Shown: positions 4,745-19,383, counted from the first letter of the stretch. The stretch: DNA of 28,662 nucleotides from Candidatus Hydrogenedentota bacterium (GCA_029974275.1 JARKSN010000137.1:1-28662), one strand, 5' to 3'. The notes: generated by a model not told the origin, from the letters alone. Numbers and translations: made by a program.

Positions 4745-6436
4745 GTGAAAGTCGCACGCATGATGAGCGAATTGCTGGATGACATGGTGGCTTCCCGTCA
4801 GATTTCCGCGGGAGACGCCGCGTGCTTGAAACAACAGGTTCAGGATCGCGGGACGGATGCGGCGCAGACCGAGAGTTCGGTGCTGCGCTGGCTAGCCCGC
4901 GAGTATGATATCGCTTATACGGACCTGGAGGGACTTGAGCCGGACCGGGAGGTATTGTCCCTTTTTCCCGCCCGGGTGCTTCTGAAGCAGGAGCTTCTGC
5001 CGCTTCGCCGGGCGGAAGGGGCGATCGAGATTGCCTTGAGCCATCTTTTCGCGACGGAAGGCCTGGATATGCTCAAGGCCTTGACAGGCGTCCGGTTCAA
5101 GCCGGTGTTGGCGCCGCGCGAGGCGATCCGCCGCGAACTGAAGAAGCATTTGGGGGTGGGAGCGGATACGCTGGACACGATCGAGGAGCGATCGCCCATT
5201 CAGGTGCTGGAGGACGGAGACGAAGAGGACGTGGATTTGGCGGAGGCCGCCGAGGATGCGTCGATCATCCGGTTCGTCAATCAGGTATTGACCGACGCCA
5301 TCGCGTTTCGCGCCACGGACATCCACCTCGAGCCTTTCGAGGATGAGTTGCGCATCCGGTATCGGATTGATGGCGTGCTCCAGGATGTGCCGATGCCGGC
5401 TCAACTCAAGCGGTACCAGCCGGCGATTGTGTCGCGCATCAAAATTTTGAGCCGCCTGGACATCGCCGAGAAACGGCTTCCGCAGGATGGACGCATCAAG
5501 GTCCGGCTGAAGGACAAGGAAGTGGACGTGCGCGTTTCGCTCATTCCGATGTTGCACGGCGAGGCGGCCGTGTTGCGATTGCTGCAGCAAGACGCCGCCT
5601 TGGAGGGCTTGACGCGCTTGAAAATGGGGCCGCGCGAGCAGCGGCTCTTTGAACGGCTCCTGGGCGTGCCGCACGGGATTATCCTTGTCACGGGGCCTAC
5701 GGGAAGCGGCAAAACGACGACCCTCTACGCTGCGTTGAATCAGATCAACGACAGTTCGCGCAAGATCGTGACCATCGAGGATCCGGTCGAGTATCACATA
5801 CGCGGGATCAACCAAATTCAGGTGTCCGAAAAAGCCGGTCTGACGTTCGCCCGAGGCTTGCGTTCCATATTGCGCCACGATCCCGATGTCATCCTCATTG
5901 GCGAAATCCGCGACGCCGAAACCGCCCAGATCGCCGTCCAGGCGTCGCTGACGGGCCATCTCGTTTTTTCGACGCTGCACACAAACGACGCGCCCGGCGC
6001 CGTGACCCGACTGGTGGACATGGGCGTGGAGCCCTATCTGGTCGCTTCCTCGTTGGAGGCGTGCATGGCGCAGCGTCTGGTGCGTGTTTTGTGCGCCCAT
6101 TGCAAGGAGGTGGATCGATCGGCTACGGCGCATGCCCTTGCGCGCCAGATCGAGTTGCCCGAGGGCGTTTCCCTTTTTCGCGCGATGGGCTGCGAGCGGT
6201 GTCGCCATACGGGGTTTCAAGGACGTCGCGCCATCTTTGAGCAGATGCTCATGACCGATGAGATTCGGCAGTTGATTCTGGGACAGTGTTCTTCGGTGTC
6301 CATACGCGAAACTGCCCGGCGCCAGGGAATGCGGCTTCTTGCCGAAGACGGTTGGCGGCTGGTGCGTGAAGGCGCTACGACGGTGGATGAGGTGTTGCGC
6401 GTTTCAAAAAATCAATCGTTTGACGAAGCAGGTTGA
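4745..6436 (+). CDS. gspE: Type II secretion ATPase GspE/PulE
   Basis: ATDIHLEP, LDIAEKRLPQDGR, Walker A GPTGSGKTT, TIEDPVEY, LRHDPDVILIGEIRD, STLHTNDA, and a Zn module CAHC...CERC. The start may be ATG 4760. Confidence 0.95.
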   Translation: MKVARMMSELLDDMVASRQISAGDAACLKQQVQDRGTDAAQTESSVLRWLAREYDIAYTDLEGLEPDREVLSLFPARVLLKQELLPLRRAEGAIEIALSHLFATEGLDMLKALTGVRFKPVLAPREAIRRELKKHLGVGADTLDTIEERSPIQVLEDGDEEDVDLAEAAEDASIIRFVNQVLTDAIAFRATDIHLEPFEDELRIRYRIDGVLQDVPMPAQLKRYQPAIVSRIKILSRLDIAEKRLPQDGRIKVRLKDKEVDVRVSLIPMLHGEAAVLRLLQQDAALEGLTRLKMGPREQRLFERLLGVPHGIILVTGPTGSGKTTTLYAALNQINDSSRKIVTIEDPVEYHIRGINQIQVSEKAGLTFARGLRSILRHDPDVILIGEIRDAETAQIAVQASLTGHLVFSTLHTNDAPGAVTRLVDMGVEPYLVASSLEACMAQRLVRVLCAHCKEVDRSATAHALARQIELPEGVSLFRAMGCERCRHTGFQGRRAIFEQMLMTDEIRQLILGQCSSVSIRETARRQGMRLLAEDGWRLVREGATTVDEVLRVSKNQSFDEAG

Positions 6437-6472: not shown

Positions 6473-7699
6473 GTGTCCATGCACTACCGAGCGGTGCGCC
6501 ACGACGGCGCAATCGTCGAGGGCCGTTTGCAGGCGGCCGGTCGCGAGGAAGCCCTGCGCCTGCTGGAGAGTGAAGGGCTTCGCCCTATCGCCGTCACGGA
6601 TTCCGCGGTTTCGACGGGAACGCGAGTGCATGGCCTCTGGGCGCGGCCCGATAGAGACAAGAGGCTTCCGCATCGCGTGGTGGAGGAATTCACCCGGTAA
6701 TTGTCCAGTCTGCTTGCGGCCGGCGTATCGCTCAGCCGGTCTTTGAGCATTCTCCATCGCGAAGCGACCCTGCCCGCCGCCAAGGCGCAGTGGAAGGCCA
6801 TCCATGATTCCGTCGTGGACGGCATGCCATTGGCCGCCGCGATGGCCAAACATCCGAGAACCTTCCCCAAAGTCTACATTGCCATGATTCAAGCGGGCGA
6901 GACCGGCGGGTTCCTTGCCGCGGTGTTGGGCCAGATCGCCGACTTCCAGAACCGCAGCCGTGAAATGCGCGGCAAGGTGGGATCCGCGATGATCTATCCG
7001 GCGGTGCTGTTGATGCTGGCGGTCGTGGTGCTTGTTTTTTTGATGGTGTTTTTCATTCCGCGCTTCAAAATGATCTTCGCGGGATTTGGGGCGCAGTTGC
7101 CGCTTATCACGCGGGTTATTGTCGGATGCAGCGAGGGTTTGTCGCAGTATGGCATATACATTGCGGCGGCGGCGGCGGGTGTCGCCGTTTGGGGGCGTCA
7201 CTGGCTCAAAACGGAACGCGGCAGCCGCGTCTGGCAGCGGCTGCTGTTGCGCATGCCATTGGTGGGGCCTCTAAAGGGGCGTTATGCCATGGCTCGTTTT
7301 TGCCGGATGCTGGGAACGCTTCTCGAGGCGGGGGTTCCCTTGATCTCGGCGTTGCGCGTGGCGTGCGAGTCGCTCGGCAACCAGACGTTGGCCGATGCGT
7401 TGCTTGCGGCGATCGATCGGGTCAAGAAGGGCAGCAGCCTCGCGGCGAGTCTGCGGGATTGCCGATCGATCTTTCCGGGGACGGTCCTCGAAATGGTGAG
7501 CGTCGCGGAAGAAACGGGGCGGCTCGACAGCGAGTTGTTGCGCGTGGCGTCCGTAACCGAGCAGGACTTGGAGCGTCGGCTGCGCACCACGGTCTCGTTG
7601 GTCGAACCGATGATGTTGTTTGTGATGGCGGGGTTTATCGGCGCCATTTTTGTGGGGATGGTGATTCCCATTTTCTCGTTGCAGGATTATATCAAGTGA
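6473..7699 (+). pseudogene. gspF: Type II secretion inner-membrane platform protein GspF/PilC interrupted by one in-frame TAA at 6698-6700
   Basis: ORFs 6473-6700 and 6701-7699 are in the same frame and read ...VEEFTR*LSSLLAAGVSL.... Downstream motifs AGETGG, SAMIYP, RFCRMLGTLLEAGVP, EETGRL and VEP are intact. The stop could also be a sequencing error. Confidence 0.8.
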
Positions 7700-7718: not shown

Positions 7719-8162
7719 GTGGTAACGACACGACACAGCATGCGACAGGGGTTGAGGGGGGCGCGCGATCGGGCAGGTTTCACGTTGGTGGAATTGCTTC
7801 TGGTGCTGGCCATCCTCGCCACCCTGGCGGCCATTGTCATTCCCAAATTCGCGGGACGCACGGAACAGGCCAAACTGACCGCGGCAAAGGCGCAAATCGC
7901 CAATCTTGGCACGGCTCTTGATTCCTACGAGGTCGATACGGGGGCGTATCCCAGTGGAAACGACGGTCTGCGCGCGTTGCTCGAGAGGCCGGGCAATGTC
8001 GATGGATGGCGCGGACCTTACATGAAGCAGGACATTCCTCTGGATCCATGGGGTCATCCCTATGTTTATGAGTTTCCCGGAAAACGCGGCGAAAACCGCT
8101 ATGATTTGTATTCCTTCGGGCCGGACGGACGGGCGGGCACGGACGATGACGTCACGAATTAG
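7719..8162 (+). CDS. gspG: Major pseudopilin GspG
   Basis: RBS AAGGAGG 7704-7710. Class III signal G|FTLVELLLVLAI, plus WRGPY, DPWGHPYVY and YDLYSFGPDG. Confidence 0.95.
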   Translation: MVTTRHSMRQGLRGARDRAGFTLVELLLVLAILATLAAIVIPKFAGRTEQAKLTAAKAQIANLGTALDSYEVDTGAYPSGNDGLRALLERPGNVDGWRGPYMKQDIPLDPWGHPYVYEFPGKRGENRYDLYSFGPDGRAGTDDDVTN

Positions 8163-8694
8163 TCCACGGATCGGTCTTGACGCGGCGTTGCGGAAGAACG
8201 GCGCCGGGATCACGCTCATTGAATTGATCCTGGTGATGGCGGTGCTGGCGACGGTGATGGCGGTGGCGGCGCCTCGATTTTCCGGCTTCGCGTCGGGCCG
8301 GCGATATGATGCCGAGTGGAATCGCTTTGTGGCGTCGGTTCGTTATGCGCGCAACGAGGCCGTGTCACGATCGGCCCCGGTGGAGATACGGTTCCGTCCT
8401 GACGGAGCCGGGTACCATCTGTCGGGCGGCTTTGGGTTCGCTTCGCCCGCGACAATAGTCACCGATCATGTGCTCCCGGCGGAAATGGCCTTTGAGTTTC
8501 CGGGAAACGCCTTGTTCCGGCAGGGAGCCGTTTCCGTGTTTTTCGGCGCGAACGGCACGGTGGACGAGGAGAGTCCGCAGGAAATCCGTCTGGTGGAGCG
8601 GCAAGGCGGGTTTTCGCGATCGATGTTGCGCGATCCGATGCTGGGGTATGTCGTTTCCCGGGGAGGCATGGATGAACGACCCCGGACGCCATAG
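8146..8694 (+). CDS. gspH: Minor pseudopilin GspH/FimT-like
   Basis: G|ITLIELILVMAVLA and RYARNEAVSR. Follows gspG; start reassigned to ATG 8146. Confidence 0.8.
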   Translation: MTSRISPRIGLDAALRKNGAGITLIELILVMAVLATVMAVAAPRFSGFASGRRYDAEWNRFVASVRYARNEAVSRSAPVEIRFRPDGAGYHLSGGFGFASPATIVTDHVLPAEMAFEFPGNALFRQGAVSVFFGANGTVDEESPQEIRLVERQGGFSRSMLRDPMLGYVVSRGGMDERPRTP

Positions 8695-9082
8695 ACGCGG
8701 GAAATCATCCGGAGGCTTCACGCTGGTGGAGGTTCTTGCGGCGATGTTGTTCATGGCGATTGTGATACCGGTGGCTGTGGAGGGGATCGCCATCGCCGGA
8801 CGCGCGGGCGTAGCGGCCGAACGACGGCGCGAGGCGGCACAGTTGGGCGATGCCCTTTTGACGCAGAAGGTGGTGACGGGCGAGTGGCAGGATGGCGCCC
8901 AGGCGGGCGATTTCGGAGCGGATCATCCCGGGTTTCGGTGGGAATTGACCACAACGGACTGGGATCAGGACGCGATGTGCGTGGTTAGCGTCGAAGTGAT
9001 GTTCACGGTGCAGGGGCGTTCGTATTCCGAACGCCTTGACACGCTGGTTTCGGAAAACGCCTTCGCGGTCTCGATGCCATGA
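8672..9082 (+). CDS. gspI: Minor pseudopilin GspI-like
   Basis: G|FTLVEVLAAMLFMAI and GDFGADHPGFRWE. GGAGG lies upstream of ATG 8672, and the gene order fits. Confidence 0.8.
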   Translation: MNDPGRHRRGKSSGGFTLVEVLAAMLFMAIVIPVAVEGIAIAGRAGVAAERRREAAQLGDALLTQKVVTGEWQDGAQAGDFGADHPGFRWELTTTDWDQDAMCVVSVEVMFTVQGRSYSERLDTLVSENAFAVSMP

Positions 9083-9762
9083 AACGGCTTTCTCGCGATA
9101 TGCCATCGAGCGGATTCACGCTGCTGGAGCTTTTGCTGGGGACCGTCATCTCGGCGGTTCTGCTTGCCGCCTTGTACGGGGTTTATCATGGGGCGTTGAG
9201 CAGTCAAAGCCGTGCGTATGCGGTTCTGGAAGAAGCGGCCCCCCGAGGATACGCCGTGGACATCATCCGGAGGGACCTGCAAAACATGGCTCCTCCGGGC
9301 GGCTTGTTGAGCGGCCATCTCCTGGGCCAGCCGCAGAACGAGGCGACCTACCGCCGGGACGCGCTTGAGTTGTATGCAACCACGGGGCGCCTGAGCGAGG
9401 CGGCTCCATGGGGAGAGATTCAAAGAATCGCCTACGCCTTGGAGAAAATCGATGATCGGTCCGATGCGTTTCGGCTTGTGCGCACGGTGACGCGCAACCT
9501 TCTCCCCGCGGCTCTTGAGGACTCGGGAGAGCCCACGGCGCTGATCGAAGGAGTGAACTCGTTCGAGGTTCAGTATTTCGACGGCCTGGCGTGGATCGAT
9601 TCTTGGGACTCGACGGCGATGGATAATGCACTTCCTCTTGCGGTCCGCGTGCGGATTGGATTCGAACCGATCCGCGCCACGGGTGCGGTCCCTCGCCCGA
9701 TCGAGATCGCCTGCGAAGCGCTTGCTCAGCGTCCGGCGCCGAGCGCCGGTTCGGGGTCATAG
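9079..9762 (+). CDS. gspJ: Minor pseudopilin GspJ
   Basis: G|FTLLELLLGTVI, IRRDLQN, and FEVQYFDGLAWIDSWDS...LPLAVRVRI. Confidence 0.88.
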   Translation: MKRLSRDMPSSGFTLLELLLGTVISAVLLAALYGVYHGALSSQSRAYAVLEEAAPRGYAVDIIRRDLQNMAPPGGLLSGHLLGQPQNEATYRRDALELYATTGRLSEAAPWGEIQRIAYALEKIDDRSDAFRLVRTVTRNLLPAALEDSGEPTALIEGVNSFEVQYFDGLAWIDSWDSTAMDNALPLAVRVRIGFEPIRATGAVPRPIEIACEALAQRPAPSAGSGS

Positions 9763-9763
9763 C

Positions 9764-11161
9764 ATGAACGCAGCGCCTCCCCCGCTCTCCCAACGGCTTC
9801 GCCCCGGCGGCGCGCGCCGCTCGCGTCAAGGAATGGCGTTGATCGTAGTGATATGGATAGCGCTTGGCCTGGTGGCCGTGGCGTTGCTGTTCGGCGATGG
9901 CATGCGGATGGAGTACCGGGCCGCAGCCAACAGCGCCGCCGCCATCGAGGCGGGACAGACCCTCGAAGGCGCCCACCGCTATCTCGCGTTTGTCTTGGGC
10001 AACACGACCTCGCCTGGCGTCTTTCCGGATGCCGCCTCGTGTCTGACCGAGAACGTTCCCGTCGGAGAGGCTTCACTCTGGGTCATTGGGCGAACGGACC
10101 AAGACATTGTCCTTCTTGACCTTCCGCATTTCGGATGGGTCGATGAGGCGTCGAAGCTGAATCTGAACACAGCGACGCGAGAAATGCTCGAGGCGTTGCC
10201 GGACATGCCGCCCGATCTCGCCGCCGCCATTGTGGATTGGCGCGATCCGGATGACGATCCGGAACCCAATGGGGCCGAGTCGAATGCGTATCACGGAAGC
10301 GAGCTAAGTCATGCCTGCAAGAATGCGCCGTTCGAGAGCGTCGAGGAACTGCGTTGGGTCAGGGGAGCCACGTTGGCCCTTCTCTGGGGGGAGGACACGA
10401 ACCTAAACGGCATGCTTGATCCGAATGAGAACGATGGGAACGCCTCGTTTCCTGACGACAATGCCGACGGCAAGCTCCGGCGCGCCTTGACGGATTTTGT
10501 GACGGTGTTCAGCGAGGAGCCGAACACGCGCCCGGACGGATCTCCCCGCATCGATGTGCGGCGCTGGCAACGGCGGGAGATGAGCGAATGGCTGGAACAA
10601 TCCGTCGGCGCGGAGAGAGGCGCCCAGATTACGAATGCGATCCAGCAAGCAGGGGGACGCATCGAGAGCGTGCTCGAGTTCTACCTGACGGGCGGAGTTA
10701 CGGCGGACGAGGCAGCTAAGCTCGACGATTCCTTGACCGCCCACGATGGTCCCGTGGTGCAGGGACGCGTGAATGTGAACACCGCTCCGCGCGAGGTGTT
10801 GCGGTGTCTCCCTGGAATTGGCGACCGATACGCCGATGCGTTGGTGACGTTTCGCCAAACCAAGACCGCCGATCAATTGGCCTCGCCGTTGTGGCTTCGC
10901 GATGTTGTGGACCCCGCGAGCGCCGCGTTGGCAGGGCCGTACATCACTACGCGATCTTACCGGATTTCCGCCGACATAGCGGCGGTTGCCGCCCATGGAC
11001 GCGCGATCCGCCGTTCCTGGATGGTGTTCGACACGAGCCGTGGACAACCGATAGTCTTGTACCGTTCCGATCGAACGCATGCCGGATGGCCGTTGGGAAT
11101 GGGCGTGCGCAACGCATCCGCGTCGATGTCGATCCGGAAAGCATGGGAGGGCATCTTGTGA
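9764..11161 (+). CDS. gspK: Minor pseudopilin GspK
   Basis: G|MALIVVIW (no E5, typical of GspK), DEASKLNLN, AIVDWRDPD, KNAPFESVEELRWVRG, RVNVNTAPREVL, LPGIG. Start reassigned to ATG 9764. Confidence 0.9.
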   Translation: MNAAPPPLSQRLRPGGARRSRQGMALIVVIWIALGLVAVALLFGDGMRMEYRAAANSAAAIEAGQTLEGAHRYLAFVLGNTTSPGVFPDAASCLTENVPVGEASLWVIGRTDQDIVLLDLPHFGWVDEASKLNLNTATREMLEALPDMPPDLAAAIVDWRDPDDDPEPNGAESNAYHGSELSHACKNAPFESVEELRWVRGATLALLWGEDTNLNGMLDPNENDGNASFPDDNADGKLRRALTDFVTVFSEEPNTRPDGSPRIDVRRWQRREMSEWLEQSVGAERGAQITNAIQQAGGRIESVLEFYLTGGVTADEAAKLDDSLTAHDGPVVQGRVNVNTAPREVLRCLPGIGDRYADALVTFRQTKTADQLASPLWLRDVVDPASAALAGPYITTRSYRISADIAAVAAHGRAIRRSWMVFDTSRGQPIVLYRSDRTHAGWPLGMGVRNASASMSIRKAWEGIL

Positions 11162-12576
11162 TATTTCCGCGGCTGAATATCCCGCAACGCGGCGCCATCC
11201 TTGTCTTTTCTCTCGGGCCCGACGCGGTCGAGGCTATCCGCGCGCATCGCCGGGATAAGAGCGCTTCTGTCTCCCAGCCGTTTCGCTTTCCTCTTCCCGC
11301 CGCTGCGTTCAAAGACGAACCCGTGCAGACGGGGATCGCGTTGCTGCGTCATCTGCATGAGGCAGGAGTCTCCTCGCGACAGTGCATCGTATGCATTCCG
11401 TTGAACTGGAGCTTTTCTGCAATCGTGGATTTTCCCAGCCTTTCCGAAAGCGATCTCGAGGGCTTCATGACCTTTGAGGCAGAGCGGCGCTTCCCACTTC
11501 CCCCGCATGAATTGACGTTGCGCCTGTTGCGTCCGCGCACCGAAGAGAGCGGGCAGCGCGCTTTGTTGCTGGGGGTTCCATCCCATTATTTGTCTAACGT
11601 GGAGGCGGCTCTCAGGGCTGCGAGGCTGCAGCCGAAGGCCATTACGTTCGCCGTGTCGGCGCTCGCTGAGGAGCACGCAGGGACCGCCTGCGCCGTGCTC
11701 CGGGCTGACCCGGGAATCGTGGATTTGGCTGTCGTGGATCATTGCGGCGCACTGGCGCTCCGCAATGTGATCTGGTCGGAATCCGCTTCCGATCCGCCCA
11801 CCGTTGCGGAGGCCCATGAGATAGCCCGGCAACTGCGCATCACCCTATCCTCGCTCGCGCCCGCGCAGCGAGACGAGATCAAAACGGTCGTCGCGCATGG
11901 CGGGAGAGACTGGCCGTCCGAGTTCCAGGATGCTCTCGCACATGCTTTTGCCGCGCAAGGGTTGATGACGAACCGTGGAACCGTTTCTCCCGAAATCATT
12001 GGCGCGGACGTTTCTCCTGCCCTGCTTGCCACGGCAATGCGTCATGGGCGCGGCGAACCGTGTGCCGTCAATCTTATGTCGCGCCGAAAAGGACGCCTCC
12101 AATCGTATGCGCGTTGGTCGTCTCGGAATTTTCGCCGGGCGGCGGCGGCCCTGGCATTGATCGCCGTCCTTGTAGCAGCGGGGTATTGGCGGCAGGGACG
12201 CCGCCTGGCGGAGCTTGAGAAAGCCTGGGCCGCCATCGGCCCGCGGGTAGAGTCGGTGAAAATGTTGCAGGATCGGGTTCGCCTGTACCGTTCCTGGTAC
12301 GACGAGGCGATCCCCAGCCTATCCATTGCCCATGGTCTCGCGTCCGCTTTTCCAGAGGAGGGATCTGTCTGGGTGAAATCATTGAGCATTAAGGATGGGG
12401 CGATCGCGACTTGCTCGGGTAGCGCCCGCAGTCGCAGCGAGTGGATGCAAGTGATGGAGAAATTGGGAAAGGACGGCGCGTTGGATGATTTGCAGGTGGT
12501 TCAAACGCGCGGCGACGCACCGCTTGGATTCACGTTGACATTCCACTGGAAAGGAAAAGACGCCAGTGGCTCCTGA
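11158..12576 (+). CDS. GspL-like / PilM-PilN-like assembly platform protein
   Basis: GTG overlaps the gspK stop. A long cytoplasmic region (FEAERRFPLP, ALRAARLQP) is followed by VNL, one TM helix, a coiled coil and the PilN-like FPEEGSVWVKSLSI...SGSARS. Confidence 0.7.
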   Translation: MIFPRLNIPQRGAILVFSLGPDAVEAIRAHRRDKSASVSQPFRFPLPAAAFKDEPVQTGIALLRHLHEAGVSSRQCIVCIPLNWSFSAIVDFPSLSESDLEGFMTFEAERRFPLPPHELTLRLLRPRTEESGQRALLLGVPSHYLSNVEAALRAARLQPKAITFAVSALAEEHAGTACAVLRADPGIVDLAVVDHCGALALRNVIWSESASDPPTVAEAHEIARQLRITLSSLAPAQRDEIKTVVAHGGRDWPSEFQDALAHAFAAQGLMTNRGTVSPEIIGADVSPALLATAMRHGRGEPCAVNLMSRRKGRLQSYARWSSRNFRRAAAALALIAVLVAAGYWRQGRRLAELEKAWAAIGPRVESVKMLQDRVRLYRSWYDEAIPSLSIAHGLASAFPEEGSVWVKSLSIKDGAIATCSGSARSRSEWMQVMEKLGKDGALDDLQVVQTRGDAPLGFTLTFHWKGKDASGS

Positions 12577-13099
12577 ACGCAGGAAACAGCTTTTGCTTGC
12601 CGTCGCCTTGATGTGCATGGGGGCGTTTGCGTTCGATCGGCTGGCGCTAACTCCCGGCCTTGTCGTGTGGAACGAGCGTTCGGCCCGAATTCTGGAGCTT
12701 GAAAAGAACATTGCCGAAAGCGACGGGCTTTTGCAGAGAGAAACCGCGTTGAAAGAACGGTGGGAAAGCATGAAGGAGCGCTCCCTGCCTGCCCGGGTTT
12801 CCGACGCCGAATCGACGGTGTTGCAATCCGTCGGCCGTTGGGCGGGCGACAGCGGCCTGAGCGTGACTTCCTTGAAGCCTCGGTGGAACCGGCTGGGGCC
12901 GATGGCCCAGACTTTGGAGTTTCAGTTGGAGGGCAGCGGCAACATGGAGTCGGTGGCGAAGTTTCTCTATGCTTTGGAAACGGATCCCCTGCCGCTTAAG
13001 GTGGAGGACATGTTGATTTCAGCGCAAGATGATCAAGGAGACCGGCTGGTTCTGAGCGCTCGTTTCTCAGCTCTTGTCCTTGAGGAGACGTCGCCATGA
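12566..13099 (+). CDS. GspM/PilO-like protein
   Basis: N-terminal TM helix, coiled coil and a ferredoxin-like C-domain (SGLSVTSLKP...LEGSGNMESVAKFLYALE..PLPLKVE). Confidence 0.75.
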   Translation: MAPERRKQLLLAVALMCMGAFAFDRLALTPGLVVWNERSARILELEKNIAESDGLLQRETALKERWESMKERSLPARVSDAESTVLQSVGRWAGDSGLSVTSLKPRWNRLGPMAQTLEFQLEGSGNMESVAKFLYALETDPLPLKVEDMLISAQDDQGDRLVLSARFSALVLEETSP

Positions 13100-13740
13100 C
13101 GCGAACGTTTGTCGTAAGAAGCATGGGCTTCCTGCTGCTGTTCGTCGCGATCGGATGGGCCTGTGCGGAATCTCCCGTTTTGCCGGAAGCGACGGAGGAA
13201 ACGGCAGGGGCGGCGGAAAGCGGCGCGTCCGACGCTTCTGGTTTTGACGCGTTTCGCCTTCTTCTCGAACGAAACATCTTTAACGCGAAGCGAACGAGCC
13301 GTCCGGCAAGCGAGGCGAAGTCCGCTGCGCCTCCCTCCCCAAAGCAGAGGGTGCGTCTCATGGGCGTTTGTCTGGACGCCAATCGCCGCGTCGCGCTTTT
13401 TGAGGAAAGCGACGACGTCTCCCCCATCGCCATCGAATTGGGCGGTTTCATAGCGGGGCATCGCATCCAGGAAATCCGCGTAGACGCCGTGGTGATGGCA
13501 AGCGAGGCCGCGACCGTGGAACTTTCGGTGGGGGCAGGGCTAAGCCAAGACAAGGACGGCCATTGGGCGGTCGTGGAAGCGTCCGCCATACAACGTTCTG
13601 GCGCCGTATCGCCGGGCGCGAAGCCGAAATCCGATCCGGAAAATGCCGCCGCCGAGACGCCGCGCGGCGCGTCCGAAAAAGCCGTTTCCGATCCCGCGGA
13701 AAAACTGCGCGAACGCAGAAGAAGGGAGCTTGGATCATGA
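13096..13740 (+). CDS. GspC/PilP-like protein (HR domain, no PDZ)
   Basis: N-terminal hydrophobic segment, ERNIF, and VRLMGV...VALF...GGFIAGHRIQEIRVDAVVM. It lies directly before the secretin genes. Confidence 0.6.
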   Translation: MTRTFVVRSMGFLLLFVAIGWACAESPVLPEATEETAGAAESGASDASGFDAFRLLLERNIFNAKRTSRPASEAKSAAPPSPKQRVRLMGVCLDANRRVALFEESDDVSPIAIELGGFIAGHRIQEIRVDAVVMASEAATVELSVGAGLSQDKDGHWAVVEASAIQRSGAVSPGAKPKSDPENAAAETPRGASEKAVSDPAEKLRERRRRELGS

Positions 13741-15215
13741 AAAAGGATCGCATCAAAACCGCTTTGATCACTGCGGTTTGTTTGGCGTGTCTGGGTTTTC
13801 CGCCAATGGCCGGCGGGGAGCCTCAAATAGAGGCCGCACAAGAGCGCGCCGCGATCGTGTCCAGCCCTGTCCAGGAAAAAGAGCCGTTTGACGAGGCGCT
13901 ACGCTTCAATTTCAACGATGTTCCGTTGGATACGGTGCTTGACTATTTGAGTCAGGCGGCGGGCTTCGTCATCCTTCGCGAGGTTCAGGTCGAAGGGCGC
14001 GTAAGCGTCGTGAGTCATCAGCCCCTCACCAAAGACGAAGCCGTGGAATTGCTGAACACGGTCTTGAACGAAAAAGGTTTCACGGCCATTCGCAGTGATC
14101 GCACGCTGACCATCGTGAAAAGCGAAGACGCCGGAAAGCGGAACATCCCTGTTCGGACCGGAAATGTTCCCGAGGCCATTCCCGCCTCAGGTCAGATGGT
14201 CACCCAGATCATTCCCGTGCGCTATGCAGACGCCAGCCAGCTTCTGGACAATCTGGCCCCTCTCCTGCCGTCGTATGCGGTCGCCAACGCCAACAAAAGC
14301 AGCAACGCCATCGTTCTCACGGACACGCAGGCCAACGTCAAGCGCATGACGGAGATCGTCCGCGCTTTGGATACGTCGATATCGGCGATTTCCGAGATCA
14401 AGGTCTTCACGCTCACCTACTCGAAAGCGGCCGACGCCGCCAAGCTGCTGAACACGCTCTTCCAGCCTCCATCGTCGCAGCAAGGGGCCAACGCCGCCAG
14501 TCCCATGAACCAATTTTTTCAGCGCATGCGCGGCGGGGGCGGGGGCAATCCCCCTCAGGAGCCATCGGACAGCGCCGCCAAGCAGGCTATCTCACGGGTC
14601 CAGGCCGTGGCTGACGAACGGACGAATTCGGTGGTGGTGACCGCTCCTGGCGAATTGATGCCACTTATCGGCGAAGTCATTGAACAAACCGACAAGTTCA
14701 CCATGCCGAGCACGGAAATCCGCGTCTTCGCGCTCCAATACGCGGACGCGGAGGAAATGGCGCAAGTGGTCAACGACTCATTCGAGCAGACCGGCGCAAC
14801 GTCGGCAACGAGCGGCGCGCAGCAGACGCCGCGCATGTTTGGAGGGACCCGCGGCGGGCAGAATGGGGGCGGGCAGACCCCGCAGGCAACAGTCAACGAT
14901 GCGGTGCGCGCCGTGGCGGATTTCCGGACCAACTCGGTGGTGGTGACCGCGGAGTCGACCCTGATGGATCAGATCGCCAGGGTGATTGAACGGCTCGACA
15001 GCAATCCCGCTCGCGAACAGAAAGTGTTCATCTACAAAATCACGAACGCCGATCCCGAGCAGGTGGCCAATATCATGCAAGGCATGTTTTCTCAGTCGCG
15101 CAGCGCGTCTTCAACCCGTCCCGCTCAGGAATCGACGCGGACGACAACAGGACAGAGCGGCGCCAACGATGCCCAATCATCAAGAACGCGCTCGACGTCG
15201 ACTCGAAGTCAATAA
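13737..15215 (+). CDS. Secretin N-terminal subunit (N0 plus NolW-like repeats, no beta-barrel domain)
   Basis: ATG 13737 overlaps the upstream stop, and a signal peptide follows. N0 reads LRFNFNDVPLDTVLDYLS...GRVSV. Repeats begin TQIIPVRYADA, IKVFTLTYSKA, IRVFALQYADA and KVFIYKITNADP. The protein ends in an S/T-rich tail at TAA. Confidence 0.85.
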   Translation: MKKDRIKTALITAVCLACLGFPPMAGGEPQIEAAQERAAIVSSPVQEKEPFDEALRFNFNDVPLDTVLDYLSQAAGFVILREVQVEGRVSVVSHQPLTKDEAVELLNTVLNEKGFTAIRSDRTLTIVKSEDAGKRNIPVRTGNVPEAIPASGQMVTQIIPVRYADASQLLDNLAPLLPSYAVANANKSSNAIVLTDTQANVKRMTEIVRALDTSISAISEIKVFTLTYSKAADAAKLLNTLFQPPSSQQGANAASPMNQFFQRMRGGGGGNPPQEPSDSAAKQAISRVQAVADERTNSVVVTAPGELMPLIGEVIEQTDKFTMPSTEIRVFALQYADAEEMAQVVNDSFEQTGATSATSGAQQTPRMFGGTRGGQNGGGQTPQATVNDAVRAVADFRTNSVVVTAESTLMDQIARVIERLDSNPAREQKVFIYKITNADPEQVANIMQGMFSQSRSASSTRPAQESTRTTTGQSGANDAQSSRTRSTSTRSQ

Positions 15216-15258
15216 TGCGGATTGTCGCCTGGAACGGCGCGGCGGGAGGATATCGAAC

Positions 15259-16497
15259 ATGCGTATGGACATGCGGTGGATGCAAGCGGCGATCTTGGCG
15301 ATCCTCGCCCTTTGGAGCGTTGAAAATGCGACGGCGCAGGCGCGCGCGGCGCAACGGCAGACCGGTTCTACGTCCCAAAGTCAGAAGGCCGGTCTTCGGG
15401 GGGACGCCCTCATCCAATACGACGAGAACACCGGATCGCTCATCATTGTGACCGATGAAGAGACGAACGCCGAGATAGCCAAAGTCGTGGAGAGTCTTGA
15501 CAAGCCCGTGCCGCAAGTTTTGATCAAGGTTCTGTTCCTTGAAGTGACCCACAACAATGATCTTGATTTGGGTCTAGATGGATTGATTACCGAGGAAAGG
15601 AGACGGCCTTTCAGCACGCAAGTGAATTCGGACACGGTGCAAACCCTTTTCGGCGTCGCGGGCGAGACCAGCGGCGGCTTCTACCGCATTATCCGGGACG
15701 ACGTGAACGTGACGTTGCGCGCGTTGGCGCAGGTGTCCAAGCTCGAAGTGCTGTCGCGTCCATCGATTTTGACGCGCAACAATAAGTCCGCCGTCATTAC
15801 CGTGGGACAGGAAGTTCCCTTCATCACCAACAGCCGGATCACCCAGGACGGACAAACCCTCAACACCGTTCAGTACAGGGATATCGGCATCATCCTCCAA
15901 GTTACGCCGCACATTTCGGAGGATGGCCTCGTTGCCATGGACGTCACGCCGGAAATCTCCGCGCTCACCGGCCAAACCGTCCCCATCTCTGAAAATGTGA
16001 ACGCCCCCGTCTTCGCAAAGCGATCGGCCACCACATCGGTGGTGGTGCCCGACGGCAACACCGTCGTTATCGGCGGCTTGATGGAAGACAACAGCACCAA
16101 AAACGACAAGAAGGTGCCGCTTTTGGGGGACATTCCCGTGTTGGGCACAGCCTTTAGCCGGAAAATCAAATCAAAAAGCAAAACCGAGCTTCTCATTTTT
16201 CTGACGCCGCGCGTGGTTCAAGGCGCGAGCGATTTGACCAACATGACTACCACCGAAAAGGGCAAGGGCGTTCTCTCGCCCAAGGCATTCCCGGAAGAAC
16301 AACTCGACCGTTTTCTGGATAAGCCCAATGGCGAGACGCCCGCGTTGCCCGAAGGAATCCAACCCGTTTCCAACGCAGAACAACCAGCAGCCGATGTGGA
16401 AGCGACGGCGGAAACAAAGCCTGACGCGCCGGGGACCGAGGCGCCCCCGGACAAAAGTGCAAAAAAGAAAAAACGTTTCTTCAAATCGAAATCATAG
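15259..16497 (+). CDS. gspD: Secretin C-terminal subunit (GspD secretin core)
   Basis: RBS GGGAGGA and its own signal peptide (MRMDMRWMQAAILAILALWSVENATA|Q). Motifs include LDKPVPQVLIKVLFLEV, VLSRPSILTRNN, QYRDIGIILQVTPHI, TVVIGGLM, KVPLLGDIPVLG and KTELLIFLTPRVV. Confidence 0.9.
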   Translation: MRMDMRWMQAAILAILALWSVENATAQARAAQRQTGSTSQSQKAGLRGDALIQYDENTGSLIIVTDEETNAEIAKVVESLDKPVPQVLIKVLFLEVTHNNDLDLGLDGLITEERRRPFSTQVNSDTVQTLFGVAGETSGGFYRIIRDDVNVTLRALAQVSKLEVLSRPSILTRNNKSAVITVGQEVPFITNSRITQDGQTLNTVQYRDIGIILQVTPHISEDGLVAMDVTPEISALTGQTVPISENVNAPVFAKRSATTSVVVPDGNTVVIGGLMEDNSTKNDKKVPLLGDIPVLGTAFSRKIKSKSKTELLIFLTPRVVQGASDLTNMTTTEKGKGVLSPKAFPEEQLDRFLDKPNGETPALPEGIQPVSNAEQPAADVEATAETKPDAPGTEAPPDKSAKKKKRFFKSKS

Positions 16498-16502
16498 GAT
16501 TT

Positions 16503-16528
16503 TCCGGCGCACGCCGCACGGCGCCGGA
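16503..16528 (+). other. Intergenic GC-rich hairpin without T-tract
   Basis: tccggcgc-acgccgcacg-gcgccgga, between the secretin and kinase genes. Confidence 0.45.
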
Positions 16529-16538
16529 TCTAACGAAG

Positions 16539-17981
16539 ATGTTTTCACGACGGAACGGCATAACCTATGGACTGCTCGCCTTGGCCGGCGCCTTGATATG
16601 CGCATGGCAGGGATATGAGCACCTGCGCGCCACGGAAATGGCCCGCTCTGCGTTGCTTCATCGGGCTCTCGACATCTCGAACACGCTGGGGGTGGTGTTG
16701 CGCTCGCAGGGAATATTCGGCATGGTGCGTCAGTCGCGCCTGGAAGCTGCGTTGCGCGAACTGATCCAGTCGGGCGAACTCACGTCTGTGGCCTTGCTTT
16801 ATGCGTCCGGCGAAGTAGCCGCTTCAGCAGGGCCGCTCCCTCAAATGGAAACGGCCTCCTTGGTCAAAGAAGGATTTCACTGGAGTTCCGCCGAACTCAT
16901 CGTCGTCAATCCCGTCGATTTGGGCGGCGATTCGGAAGCGGGCGACACGCCGCAGACCTCCATCGTCATTCCGGAGGGGGAGGCGATGGACCGGTATCGC
17001 CCGCCGCGTCCACGCGATGACAGGGATCGCGACGACAGACAACGCGAACATCGGCGCGCGCCAGCGTCTTCGCCTCAATTTGGGCGTCCTTTCTGGATGA
17101 GCGAGCAGCAATATCGCGACTTGGTGAGCAAACAGGGCGTGCATTATTTTGTCTTGACGCTGTCCACGGGCAGCTATCGGGCATTGTTGCAGCGCGACCT
17201 TCACACCCGGATATTCTTGGCCGGCATTGCGCTTGTTGCCGTAGCGGGTCTTGGGTTGGCTTGGCGCAACGCGGAACGCTCCTCCGCGTTGCAAATGGAT
17301 CTGCTTCGTGCGGATGAAATGAACCGGCACCTTCGTGAAATGAATTTGGCGGCGGCAGGGTTGGCGCACGAAACGCGCAATCCGCTCAACGTCATCCGCG
17401 GATTTGCCCAAGTGTTCTCGCGGCGCGATGACGTGCCGGGCGATGTCCGCGAAACGTCATGGCGCATTGCCGATGAGGTAGACCGCGTCACCGATCGGCT
17501 CAACCAATTCATCGCCTATTCGCGTCCGCCAGAAGCGAAACCGGTTCCTGTTGATCTAAAGGCTGTCGTCAGGGACGTCGCCCGGACTCTAGAAAGCGAC
17601 CGCGAGGACAAGCAAATCGTCTTGGAACTGAGCGGTCCGACGCTGACGGTCGAGGCGGACGAATCGCTGCTTCGCCAAATCGTGTTCAATCTGATGCTGA
17701 ACGCGATTCAGGCGCTGCCGCATGGCGGCAGCCTTTGGGTCCAGCTTGCATACGCCCTTGACGGCATGGCCAGTCTGGAGGTGCGCGACAATGGACCCGG
17801 CGTGCCAGAGGCCGCGCGGGAAGACATTTTCCGTCCGTATTTCACGACTTCGGAGCAGGGCACGGGGCTGGGTTTGGCGGTGGTGCGTCAGGCCGTGCTT
17901 GCGCACCGCTGGAGCATTGTCTACGCGCCCGCCGATTACGGGGGCGCAATCTTTCGGGTGAGCGGATTACGGGTGGTGTAG
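16539..17981 (+). CDS. Membrane sensor histidine kinase (NtrB/ZraS-like)
   Basis: Two TM helices flank a periplasmic domain. H-box AAGLAHETRNPL, N-box NLMLNAIQA, G1 VRDNGPGV, F-box IFRPYFTT, G2 GTGLGLA. Confidence 0.93.
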   Translation: MFSRRNGITYGLLALAGALICAWQGYEHLRATEMARSALLHRALDISNTLGVVLRSQGIFGMVRQSRLEAALRELIQSGELTSVALLYASGEVAASAGPLPQMETASLVKEGFHWSSAELIVVNPVDLGGDSEAGDTPQTSIVIPEGEAMDRYRPPRPRDDRDRDDRQREHRRAPASSPQFGRPFWMSEQQYRDLVSKQGVHYFVLTLSTGSYRALLQRDLHTRIFLAGIALVAVAGLGLAWRNAERSSALQMDLLRADEMNRHLREMNLAAAGLAHETRNPLNVIRGFAQVFSRRDDVPGDVRETSWRIADEVDRVTDRLNQFIAYSRPPEAKPVPVDLKAVVRDVARTLESDREDKQIVLELSGPTLTVEADESLLRQIVFNLMLNAIQALPHGGSLWVQLAYALDGMASLEVRDNGPGVPEAAREDIFRPYFTTSEQGTGLGLAVVRQAVLAHRWSIVYAPADYGGAIFRVSGLRVV

Positions 17982-17982
17982 C

Positions 17983-19383
17983 ATGCAACAAGACGCAAAA
18001 AACGGCGGCGCAGTGAAGTCTCCGGATCGGGATCCGGCGCGCATATTGGTCGTGGATGACGATGAAAGTCAGCGGAGTCTTTTGTCGTCGTTCCTCACGA
18101 CACAGGGTTTTCGCGTCGTAACCGCAGGTTCCGGAGAGGAAGCGTTGGCCGTGATGGGATCGGAGCCGTTCGACCTGCTGATCTCCGATGTGCGCATGCC
18201 GGGCCTGTCCGGCCTGGAGATGCTGCGGAGGCTGCGTCATGCGGAGAATCCCATTCCTGTGTTGCTGGTCACCGGCTATGCCGACATCCGGGACGCGGTC
18301 GGCGCCATGCGGGACGGCGCCGCCAATTATCTCGAAAAACCCATAGATTTGGATGAATTGCTAGAGTCGGTCCGTCGTTCGATCGGTTCTTGGGACGTCT
18401 TGAAGGATCCCCAGCCGGATGTGTTGCCGATTCCGGCATCGGTTGTCGCGCAAAGCCCTCAGATGCGCCATGTCCTCCAGGAGGCTGCCATCGTGGCCGC
18501 GTCCGAAAGCCGTGTTCTTATCACTGGCGAGAGCGGCGTTGGCAAGGAAGTGATAGGAGACCTTATCCATGCATGGAGCGCTCGTTCAGGCGGTCCGCTG
18601 ATTAAAGTGAATTGTGCGGCTATTCCGGAAACGCTCCTTGAGAGCGAACTGTTCGGGCATGAGAAAGGGGCTTTCACCGGCGCCTCGGCGCAACGCATCG
18701 GTCGTTTTGAGGAAGCAGCGGGGGGAACGCTTTTTTTGGATGAAGTCGCCGAGATGTCCTCGGGATTGCAGGCCAAGCTGCTGCACATCACGCAAAATGG
18801 CGCTTTCCAACGCGTTGGATCGAATGTGGACCGATTTTCGGATGTACGAATTGTTGCTGCAACAAACCGAAATATCGAAAAGGAAATTGCGGAAGGCCGT
18901 TTTCGGGAAGACCTATACTATCGGCTGAATGTCGTGGAAATATACGTGCCGCCACTGCGTGATCGGCCAGCCGATATTCTGGCCATGGCTCATGCCTTCG
19001 CGGAACACTTTATGAAACACAAGGCCCGCTTTTCTCCGCTAGTTGTTTCATGTCTGGAACTATATGAGTGGCCCGGAAACGTAAGGGAACTGCGAAACGC
19101 AATGGAACGCGCCACCTTGATGGCGCGTGGTGATTTGATTCTCCCGGAACACTTGCCCAAACGTGTCCAAGAAGCCGGGCATAGCGCCGCGATTGAAGGG
19201 AATGAGGCCGCTCCTCGTGGAAAACGCATTGAGGAAATGGAACGGGTTTTCATCCTCCAGACGCTACGGGAACATGGATACAATCGCACCGAAACAGCCC
19301 GGGCCTTGGGTCTCAGCCGCCGCGCCTTGATCTATAAAATCAGGCGTTATCGAGAACAGGGCCACGCGACGGAAAGTCCGTGA
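17983..19383 (+). CDS. Sigma54-dependent response regulator (NtrC/ZraR/AtoC family)
   Basis: REC domain (ILVVDDD, SDVRMPG, KP), Walker A GESGVGKE, ESELFGHEKGAFTGA, LFLDEV, FREDLYYRLNV, WPGNVREL, and a Fis-type HTH NRTETARALGLSR. Confidence 0.96.
   Translation: MQQDAKNGGAVKSPDRDPARILVVDDDESQRSLLSSFLTTQGFRVVTAGSGEEALAVMGSEPFDLLISDVRMPGLSGLEMLRRLRHAENPIPVLLVTGYADIRDAVGAMRDGAANYLEKPIDLDELLESVRRSIGSWDVLKDPQPDVLPIPASVVAQSPQMRHVLQEAAIVAASESRVLITGESGVGKEVIGDLIHAWSARSGGPLIKVNCAAIPETLLESELFGHEKGAFTGASAQRIGRFEEAAGGTLFLDEVAEMSSGLQAKLLHITQNGAFQRVGSNVDRFSDVRIVAATNRNIEKEIAEGRFREDLYYRLNVVEIYVPPLRDRPADILAMAHAFAEHFMKHKARFSPLVVSCLELYEWPGNVRELRNAMERATLMARGDLILPEHLPKRVQEAGHSAAIEGNEAAPRGKRIEEMERVFILQTLREHGYNRTETARALGLSRRALIYKIRRYREQGHATESP

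Follow-up and report, generated by a model that had tools for sequence, protein, structure and literature searches.

The DNA considered here is a 28,662-nucleotide stretch (the window) from a Candidatus Hydrogenedentota bacterium (GCA_029974275.1, JARKSN010000137.1:1-28662), in which a type II secretion system (T2SS) operon ends in two adjacent genes, at 13737–15215 and 15259–16497 on the + strand, that divide the domains of the secretin GspD between them. The field regards secretins as homo-oligomers of a single chain, and the solved secretin chains matched in this work all carry their N domains and their pore on one chain. We argue, with good confidence, that the pair is a genuine and anciently fixed two-gene form of GspD, in which a half domain at the end of the first chain and another at the start of the second rebuild a single N domain. 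That the two-gene secretin is a real and functional state we regard as close to certain, the same split anatomy being present in 47 of 84 related loci, which is more than chance would give.

Anatomy of the two genes and the position of the cut

The upstream gene (gene 1, 13737–15215, defined by open reading frame (ORF) calling, Pfam and TIGR02517) encodes the 492 amino acid N-chain, which comprises in order a signal peptide, an N0 domain, three whole Secretin_N domains, an orphan first half of a further such domain and a polar tail. The N0 domain (amino acids 57–123, 13905–14105, + strand like all the features described here) matches Pfam PF21305 with 44.7 bits, and Secretin_N (PF03958) is matched in three stretches with 133.3 bits. 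The orphan first half, a strand followed by a helix, occupies amino acids 427–452 (15015–15092); on its own, the C-terminal fragment of gene 1 gives a match to positions 1–26 of the 69 in the Secretin_N profile (E 0.016). The remaining 40 residues (amino acids 453–492, 15093–15215 including the TAA stop at 15213–15215) form a low-complexity tail rich in serine, threonine, arginine and glutamine. A 43-nt spacer follows (15216–15258), carrying at 15244–15249 a ribosome-binding site, GGGAGG, with 9 nt separating it from the start codon (ATG) of gene 2, whose frame is +1 relative to that of gene 1.

Gene 2 (15259–16497, defined by the same means) encodes the 412 amino acid C-chain, made up of a signal peptide, a linker, an orphan second half domain, the secretin core and a C-terminal extension. 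The signal peptide (amino acids 1–28, 15259–15342) begins with charged residues, continues with a hydrophobic stretch and ends in A-Q-A at amino acids 26–28, after which the −3/−1 rule for signal peptidase would place the cleavage. Next come a polar linker of 19 residues rich in glutamine, serine and threonine (amino acids 29–47, 15343–15399) and the orphan second half itself, predicted as strand, strand, helix (amino acids 48–86, 15400–15516). The mature N-terminus of gene 2, scanned alone, matches Secretin_N positions 26–69 of 69 (E 3e-5) and, judged by the profile, the two orphan halves sum to exactly one Secretin_N domain. The pore domain (Secretin, PF00263) spans amino acids 155–321 (15721–16221) and scores 173.2 bits against a cut-off of 27.5.

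Compared with the TIGR02517 profile for GspD, gene 1 covers positions 1–336 of 600 (217.8 bits) and gene 2 positions 281–600 (253.1 bits). The order is that of GspD, with N0 followed by Secretin_N domains of the N1–N3 type and by a C-terminal pore domain whose predicted fold also matches GspD structures, the domains being spread over two genes and the fourth N domain divided between both. The closest database cluster to gene 2 (97% identity) is labelled Candidatus Hydrogenedentes.

A first-pass annotation, made from the sequence alone, had described the pair as a split secretin broken inside its last N domain. Its coordinates for both genes hold, and every element that it described is present. 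The N0 domain and the Secretin_N repeats of gene 1 are borne out by the Pfam matches; the half repeat seen from about nt 15018 (Q428), with a polar tail behind it, and the missing half seen from about nt 15403 (D49), beyond a Q/S/T linker, coincide with the two partial profile matches; and the change of frame, the strong ribosome-binding site, the fresh signal peptide (a like segment occurs in 46 of the 47 split loci) and the full secretin core all lie where it had put them. It was right that the split domain stands where N3 sits in GspD, but by number this is the fourth N domain, coming after N0 and three whole N domains.

Beyond the pore domain, amino acids 322–412 of gene 2 (16222–16494) consist of a P/E/A-rich stretch and then a lysine-rich tail that ends the C-chain. 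The alignment of C-chains also contains a short conserved motif after the barrel, with nearly invariant E, L and F columns, that may stand in for the pilotin-binding S-domain of classical GspD.

The position of the cut can be read from the single-chain (fused) relatives. In one of these, P0124 (769 amino acids), the first half aligns to residues 322–350 and the second to residues 434–472, and across 80 fused relatives the halves are 28–112 amino acids apart (median 73.5). The 40-residue tail and 19-residue linker of the window have a joint length about that of this loop. The secretin N domain fold runs strand-helix-strand-strand-helix, and an AlphaFold2 model of a 400 amino acid region of one fused locus (29 sequences, mean predicted local distance difference test score (pLDDT) 62.8) agrees with it: a strand at 162–168 and a helix at 174–185 (pLDDT about 87–92) are followed by residues 188–255 at pLDDT below 50 and then by strands at 273–277 and 282–288 and a helix at 289–302 (about 91–93). 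The preceding N domain in this model has a like pattern, with its loop at 88–119. According to the model, the cut sits in a predicted disordered loop between helix 1 and strand 2. The gene 1 tail would be the left remnant of the ancestral loop, and the gene 2 linker the right.

Conservation, expressed as the mean majority-residue fraction in alignments of 43 N-chain ends and 76 C-chains, separates the half domains from the sequences that flank them. The orphan first half scores 0.64, level with the second part of the intact N domain next to it (0.64) and far higher than the tail at 0.34, whilst the orphan second half scores 0.70, the linker 0.31 and the pore domain 0.80. To judge from these alignments, both orphan halves are under selection. 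In a model of the mature C-chain (mean pLDDT 76.7), the linker is disordered (pLDDT below 50) and the orphan second half forms a strand, a strand and a helix at pLDDT 82–87, followed by the elements of the barrel; the modelled fold matches the T2SS secretins 5zdh, 6hcg, 5wq7 and 5wln, with E values of about 1e-16 to 1e-15. As both halves are well conserved, the simplest explanation is that each partner supplies the rest of the fold, and we think it fairly likely that the two half domains complement each other physically to make one domain.

A signal-like segment was recognised in the split loci as a hydrophobic 11-mer with a mean Kyte-Doolittle (KD) value of 1.7 or more lying between the upstream stop and the second half. 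Such a segment is found in 46 of 47 split loci, and in 45 it reaches 1.9 or more; no hydrophobic segment was found in the corresponding loop in any of the 80 fused relatives, where the maximum 11-mer mean is 1.26. Among the database C-halves, 109 of 120 have a KD value of 1.9 or more near the N-terminus, five more lie at 1.77–1.88 and the rest have truncated starts. A small-x-small motif and then a glutamine occur within the first 50 residues of 80 of the 109, a pattern that looks as expected for signal peptidase I. Going by these segments, a second signal peptide is new to the split forms. The spacers between the split genes have a median length of 29.5 nt (most are 4–79 nt) and fall into all three frame classes, the second gene being in frame with the first (a spacer that is a multiple of 3) in 21 of 46 measured loci.

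The split in relatives and in independent DNA

Among 41 related genomes, four orthologous loci from four genera and two families (56–63% identity) are all split at the same point. In each of them the N gene stops after the half domain and a polar tail, and the next gene provides a signal-like segment and the other half; spacers and frames vary among the four. An orthologue at E 1e-70 or better was detected in 11 of 121 sampled genomes of the phylum, in every case in an open frame of 374–626 amino acids.

Together with 80 loci from species-level genomes, these four own-phylum orthologues make up the 84 loci that were classified: 47 are split, 32 are fused and five are interrupted where their contig ends. 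In 47 of 47 split loci the C gene is immediately preceded, on the same strand, by the N gene. By label, the split loci belong to Verrucomicrobiota (36), Hydrogenedentota or the window's own phylum (5) and Sumerlaeota (2), with one lacking a phylum label and three carrying odd ones (Bifidobacterium, Kapaibacterium and Cyanophyceae); of the fused loci, 31 are labelled Planctomycetota and one Chloroflexota. The Cyanophyceae (L115) and Kapaibacterium (L116) rows are nearly identical to Verrucomicrobiota rows, and the Bifidobacterium row (L108) pairs with a Verrucomicrobiota row (SH-aLRT 99). Locus L097, labelled Anaerolineales, likewise forms a tight pair with a Verrucomicrobiota or Planctomycetota row (SH-aLRT 99–100 for the L108 and L097 pairs). 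All four (L108, L115, L116 and L097) are probably binning contamination in the metagenome-assembled genomes (MAGs) concerned. The split is also present in a MAG (L118) that bears the label 'uncultured Akkermansia sp.'; the best 120 relatives of its C-half include no protein named Akkermansia muciniphila.

In an unrooted maximum likelihood tree of 83 secretin cores, from which the partial rows L105 and L111 had been dropped, one branch with an SH-aLRT of 100 separates 46 split and two undetermined rows from 32 fused and three undetermined rows, and a single change of state explains the whole tree. The C-half of the window falls inside the split clade, in a group of six rows with an SH-aLRT of 96, and the window has the conserved two-gene GspD layout seen under the Hydrogenedentota, Sumerlaeota and Verrucomicrobiota labels. 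Rooting with four paralogous secretins from the window's own genome gave branches of 4–9 changes per column and no usable root. The more distant secretins are single chains, of 824–1028 amino acids in the same genome and 682–1217 amino acids in relatives. Since this outgroup and one of the ingroup clades are both fused, parsimony points to a fused ancestor.

Database searches with either gene recover the same halves. In the near-length class, every one of the 120 best relatives of gene 2 has 306–480 amino acids (384–855 bits), with labels that include Hydrogenedentes, Omnitrophota, Sumerlaeota and Verrucomicrobiota, and the best longer relatives, at 324 bits or less, are fused GspD proteins of 725–1188 amino acids, mostly labelled Planctomycetota. 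With the C-half of a verrucomicrobial locus as query, 4628 short proteins at E 1e-60 or better were found out of 8000 scored candidates. Gene 1, compared with 1.84 billion cluster representatives, gave 9429 matches, the best 150 of which were sorted: 66 are N-only proteins that have no pore domain and end 90 amino acids or fewer from the half domain, six are fused chains (846–1181 amino acids), 76 are giant proteins and two are unclear. The giant proteins (P0243, P0245–P0247 and 72 others) are longer than 1500 amino acids, reaching 5532, and have from 6 to 33 stretches matched to the N-chain, with a secretin core in 73 of the 76; by their domain content they look like secretins with dozens of N domains.

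The junction is also preserved in contigs from three other studies (runs X2, X3 and X6). A contig from run X3 bridges 14700–15696 with 7 substitutions and no gaps, and one from run X2 covers 15067–15315 with zero differences. A run X6 contig, from a strain that is ~95% identical, spans the whole stretch, and the sole length changes in it are deletions of 6 and 3 nt, both located in the polar tail of gene 1 and both keeping the frame. None of the 40 substitutions listed (13 further exist) hits the gene 1 stop codon or the gene 2 start codon.

These results bear on the remaining claims of the first-pass annotation. Its dismissal of a frameshift artefact is upheld by the 47 split loci and the contigs from other studies, and the search of other genomes that it had proposed returned the two-gene arrangement, split alike, in those same loci. 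Its placing of the break at a disordered loop of the last N domain agrees both with the long loop of the fused relatives and with the disorder predicted there by AlphaFold2, whilst its notion of an evolved fission with a new signal peptide on the second half fits a split clade set apart by one branch and a segment present in 46 of 47 split loci and in none of 80 fused relatives. Its further idea, of an N3-equivalent domain rebuilt from two polypeptides to give a heteromeric channel, has indirect support in the complementary profile coverage of the two halves and in how well both are conserved.

A model for assembly and its alternatives

The two genes, at the end of an operon that runs from gspE and gspF through the pseudopilin genes, are probably co-transcribed, with gene 2 translated from what appears to be its own ribosome-binding site. 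Both products would be exported by Sec and their signal peptides removed. The C-chain, comprising the half domain, the secretin core and the C-terminal extension, would form the outer-membrane barrel, and the N-chain, comprising N0, three N domains and the half domain, would form a periplasmic vestibule reaching the inner-membrane platform; the N0 and N domains of GspD contact inner-membrane GspC. The C-terminal strand-helix of the N-chain would complete the N-terminal strand-strand-helix of the C-chain and so hold the chains together, the completed domain being one ring-building N domain that sits directly below the barrel and anchors N0 and the remaining N domains. Any stoichiometry of the two chains is one that we infer. 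The polar tail and the polar linker would be what is left of the long disordered loop at which the ancestral gene was cut. One route to the second signal peptide would be a tandem duplication followed by complementary deletions, with the second copy keeping the original signal peptide.

Several points weigh against this account. Binding between the chains is deduced from sequence, and the model of the C-half, being that of a single chain, cannot show it. Neither gene reaches the TIGR02517 equivalog cut-off (351.35 bits) alone. The signal peptides were called from hydrophobicity and the −3/−1 rule and not by a trained predictor, and one split locus (L068) is without a signal-like segment; at L068:3290–4100, the reading frame seems shifted at the end of the N-chain tail and ahead of the second half, and the exception is probably an indel error in that assembly. 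The sole contig from an RNA library, covering 15562–15721, lies inside gene 2 and may be DNA carry-over. Finally, fission is preferred to fusion on grounds of parsimony, the more distant secretins being single chains.

Four other explanations have to be set beside the rebuilt domain. The genes could be real and yet share no domain, the C-chain acting as a short secretin by itself and the N-chain as a separate periplasmic adaptor that binds elsewhere or transiently. Short secretins with little N-terminal region do exist among the solved matches (RcpA, 8odn; phage pIV, 7ofh), but the orphan halves are about as conserved as the parts of an intact domain when tail and linker are not, they jointly cover exactly one Secretin_N profile, the N gene stands directly upstream on the same strand at every split locus, and a lone half domain would expose its hydrophobic core; we consider this explanation unlikely. 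The direction of change could also be the reverse, with two genes as the ancestral state and the Planctomycetota forms arising by fusion. A single change between two sister clades, in an unrooted tree whose outgroup branches are as long as 4–9 changes per column, leaves some room for this. The distant secretins of the same genome and of its relatives, however, are single chains, as are the solved GspD, PilQ and InvG; parsimony gives a fused ancestor, the outgroup and one ingroup clade being fused; and fusion would need the clean deletion of a signal peptide inside a domain. Together these points make an ancestral two-gene state very unlikely.

Two explanations remain. Ribosomal frameshifting or stop read-through might yield one full-length chain, and read-through is formally possible in the 21 of 46 measured loci that are in frame. 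In the window, however, the frames differ by +1 across the 43-nt spacer, spacers elsewhere (mostly 4–79 nt) are spread over the three frame classes, gene 2 is provided with a ribosome-binding site of its own, and a read-through product would have a hydrophobic segment that spans the membrane embedded within a periplasmic domain; such recoding is scarcely credible. A pseudogene or an assembly error, in which a frameshift broke a normal gspD, has on its side only the usual signature of an indel, neighbouring ORFs in different frames. It would have to account for the same break in 47 loci under at least three phylum labels, with signal peptides, for a junction kept in contigs from three other studies and for halves and a pore domain that all stay highly conserved, and its probability is close to nil. 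A two-gene GspD with a rebuilt N domain is the reading that we carry forward.

How does this arrangement compare with known systems? A literature search for a split GspD found no report, with thin coverage of subscription journals. Canonical GspD (PulD, XcpQ and EpsD; 5wln, 5wq7, 6hcg and 5zdh) has the same domain order of N0, Secretin_N repeats and core and comes from the same type of operon, and 5wln (E 3.5e-38) and 5wq7 are the solved structures that match best by sequence. In contrast to canonical GspD, the window has two polypeptides, two signal peptides, a cut inside the N domain that abuts the barrel and one more N domain. The fused Planctomycetota GspD proteins (P0124; loci L060–L107) are the nearest single-chain relatives, with 45–53% identity over the C-half; their half domains are colinear with those of the window, and in their last N domain helix 1 and strand 2 are joined by the same long polar loop. 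They differ in that the loop is continuous and without a hydrophobic segment, and they lie on the other side of the separating branch of the tree.

The term 'split secretin gene', in the available passages of two papers, denotes RhcC1 (NolW) and RhcC2 of rhizobial type III secretion (PMC3574062, PMC3973906). There too secretin function is distributed over two genes, one encoding an N-terminal piece and the other a pore-bearing piece. On pNGR234a, RhcC1 has a T3S N0 domain and one Secretin_N match (positions 1–63 of 69) according to Pfam, and RhcC2 is a complete Tad/CpaC-type secretin (PF13629, BON, Secretin). The two are described, in the portion of the source consulted, as being of different origins (Abby and Rocha 2012, PMC3459982), which implies partial gene replacement and not fission. 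In the rhizobial case, unlike the window, the genes lie apart and the boundary between the pieces cuts through no domain; the window pieces have a GspD-type N0 and neither PF13629 nor BON. The term 'gene fission' has itself been applied, in the accessible part of another study, to TadB and TadC of the inner-membrane platform of Tad pili and not to secretins (Denise et al. 2019, PMC6668835). That is likewise a fixed fission of a core component within the type IV filament superfamily, but it concerns a platform protein, falls between two whole T2SSF domains, cuts inside no domain and brought no new signal peptide.

Genomic setting, further secretins and implications

The genes upstream of the split secretin, on the same strand, are those of an ordinary-looking T2SS, with matches to T2SSE, T2SSF, GspH, T2SSJ and T2SSK. 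The operon starts with a GspE-type secretion ATPase (4745–6436; T2SSE, 458.6 bits, and MshEN), followed by a GspF-type inner-membrane platform protein (6701–7699, with a start possibly further upstream; T2SSF, 199.5 bits in 2 stretches) and by pseudopilin genes (8062–11161; Pfam GspH, N_methyl, T2SSJ, T2SSK_1st and T2SSK), which comprise a GspH-like (8062–8694), a GspJ-like (9079–9762) and a GspK-like pseudopilin (within 9626–11161). Three further ORFs from the ORF list (10804–13740) lie within 10804–12576, 12566–13099 and 13096–13740. The Pfam scan gave no match to them; they occupy the usual place of GspL/M/C-like assembly proteins and, judging from position only, would be such proteins. The last of the three overlaps the start of gene 1 by ATGA.

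Directly downstream of the split secretin, and still on the + strand, Pfam identifies a sensor histidine kinase (16539–17981), which has a long periplasmic-looking N-terminal part, and then a sigma-54 response regulator (17983–19383). A histidine kinase is found downstream of the split secretin in four related Hydrogenedentota-type loci as well (L012–L015), and the kinase and sigma-54 activator may be a dedicated regulator of this T2SS. A scan of 13000–17000 found no promoter-like sites, and terminator-like sites at chance level only.

Other secretins came to light in the course of this work. The window's own genome has tandem short secretin genes elsewhere (contig C295, L007 1387–3485, − strand), encoding 360 and at least 339 amino acids, with the first stop overlapping the second start and Secretin matches of 116.5 and 73.3 bits; they may represent a heteromeric secretin of another system. 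A second candidate split in the same genome, on contig C167, was rejected, its 507 amino acid frame being a different single-chain protein by a chain-length determinant-like gene.

A secretin divided over three genes is encoded in two genomes (L067:1952–5035 and L071:1919–5014), with middle pieces that are 71% identical. In piece A, a signal peptide is followed by N0, a complete N domain and the opening half of the one after it, with a tail rich in G. Piece B, which likewise carries a signal peptide, supplies the other half of the domain broken in piece A, then a complete N domain and the opening half of the last one. The closing half of that last domain is found in piece C, together with a further signal peptide and the pore. 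The extra cut, a second and independent one, thus falls in an earlier N domain but at an equivalent point of the fold, the loop that follows helix 1. In a class-level sample, piece B was matched in 8 of 151 genomes and was a separate short frame in the query genome only, and the three-gene form is accordingly rare.

It is tempting, if somewhat doubtful, to take the loop between helix 1 and strand 2 of ring-building domains as a general and repeatedly used fission point, with the vestibule as a separately exported subunit, or two in the three-gene form, that snaps onto the barrel by completing a sheet between chains, possibly with a swap between neighbouring protomers. If secretins are modular in this way, insertion of the barrel would be uncoupled from assembly of the vestibule, and nature would have provided a self-assembling split-domain pair that works in the periplasm and could be tried as a tool for protein engineering. 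For those who annotate genomes, thousands of database entries of about 350–450 amino acids, named 'GspD' or 'hypothetical protein', are halves and not fragments, and annotation rules built on a single full-length secretin may report too few T2SS in these phyla. For the biology of secretins, the link between barrel and vestibule would be one that can be non-covalent, and the two-chain form would offer a natural experiment on secretin assembly and on its coupling to the inner-membrane platform.

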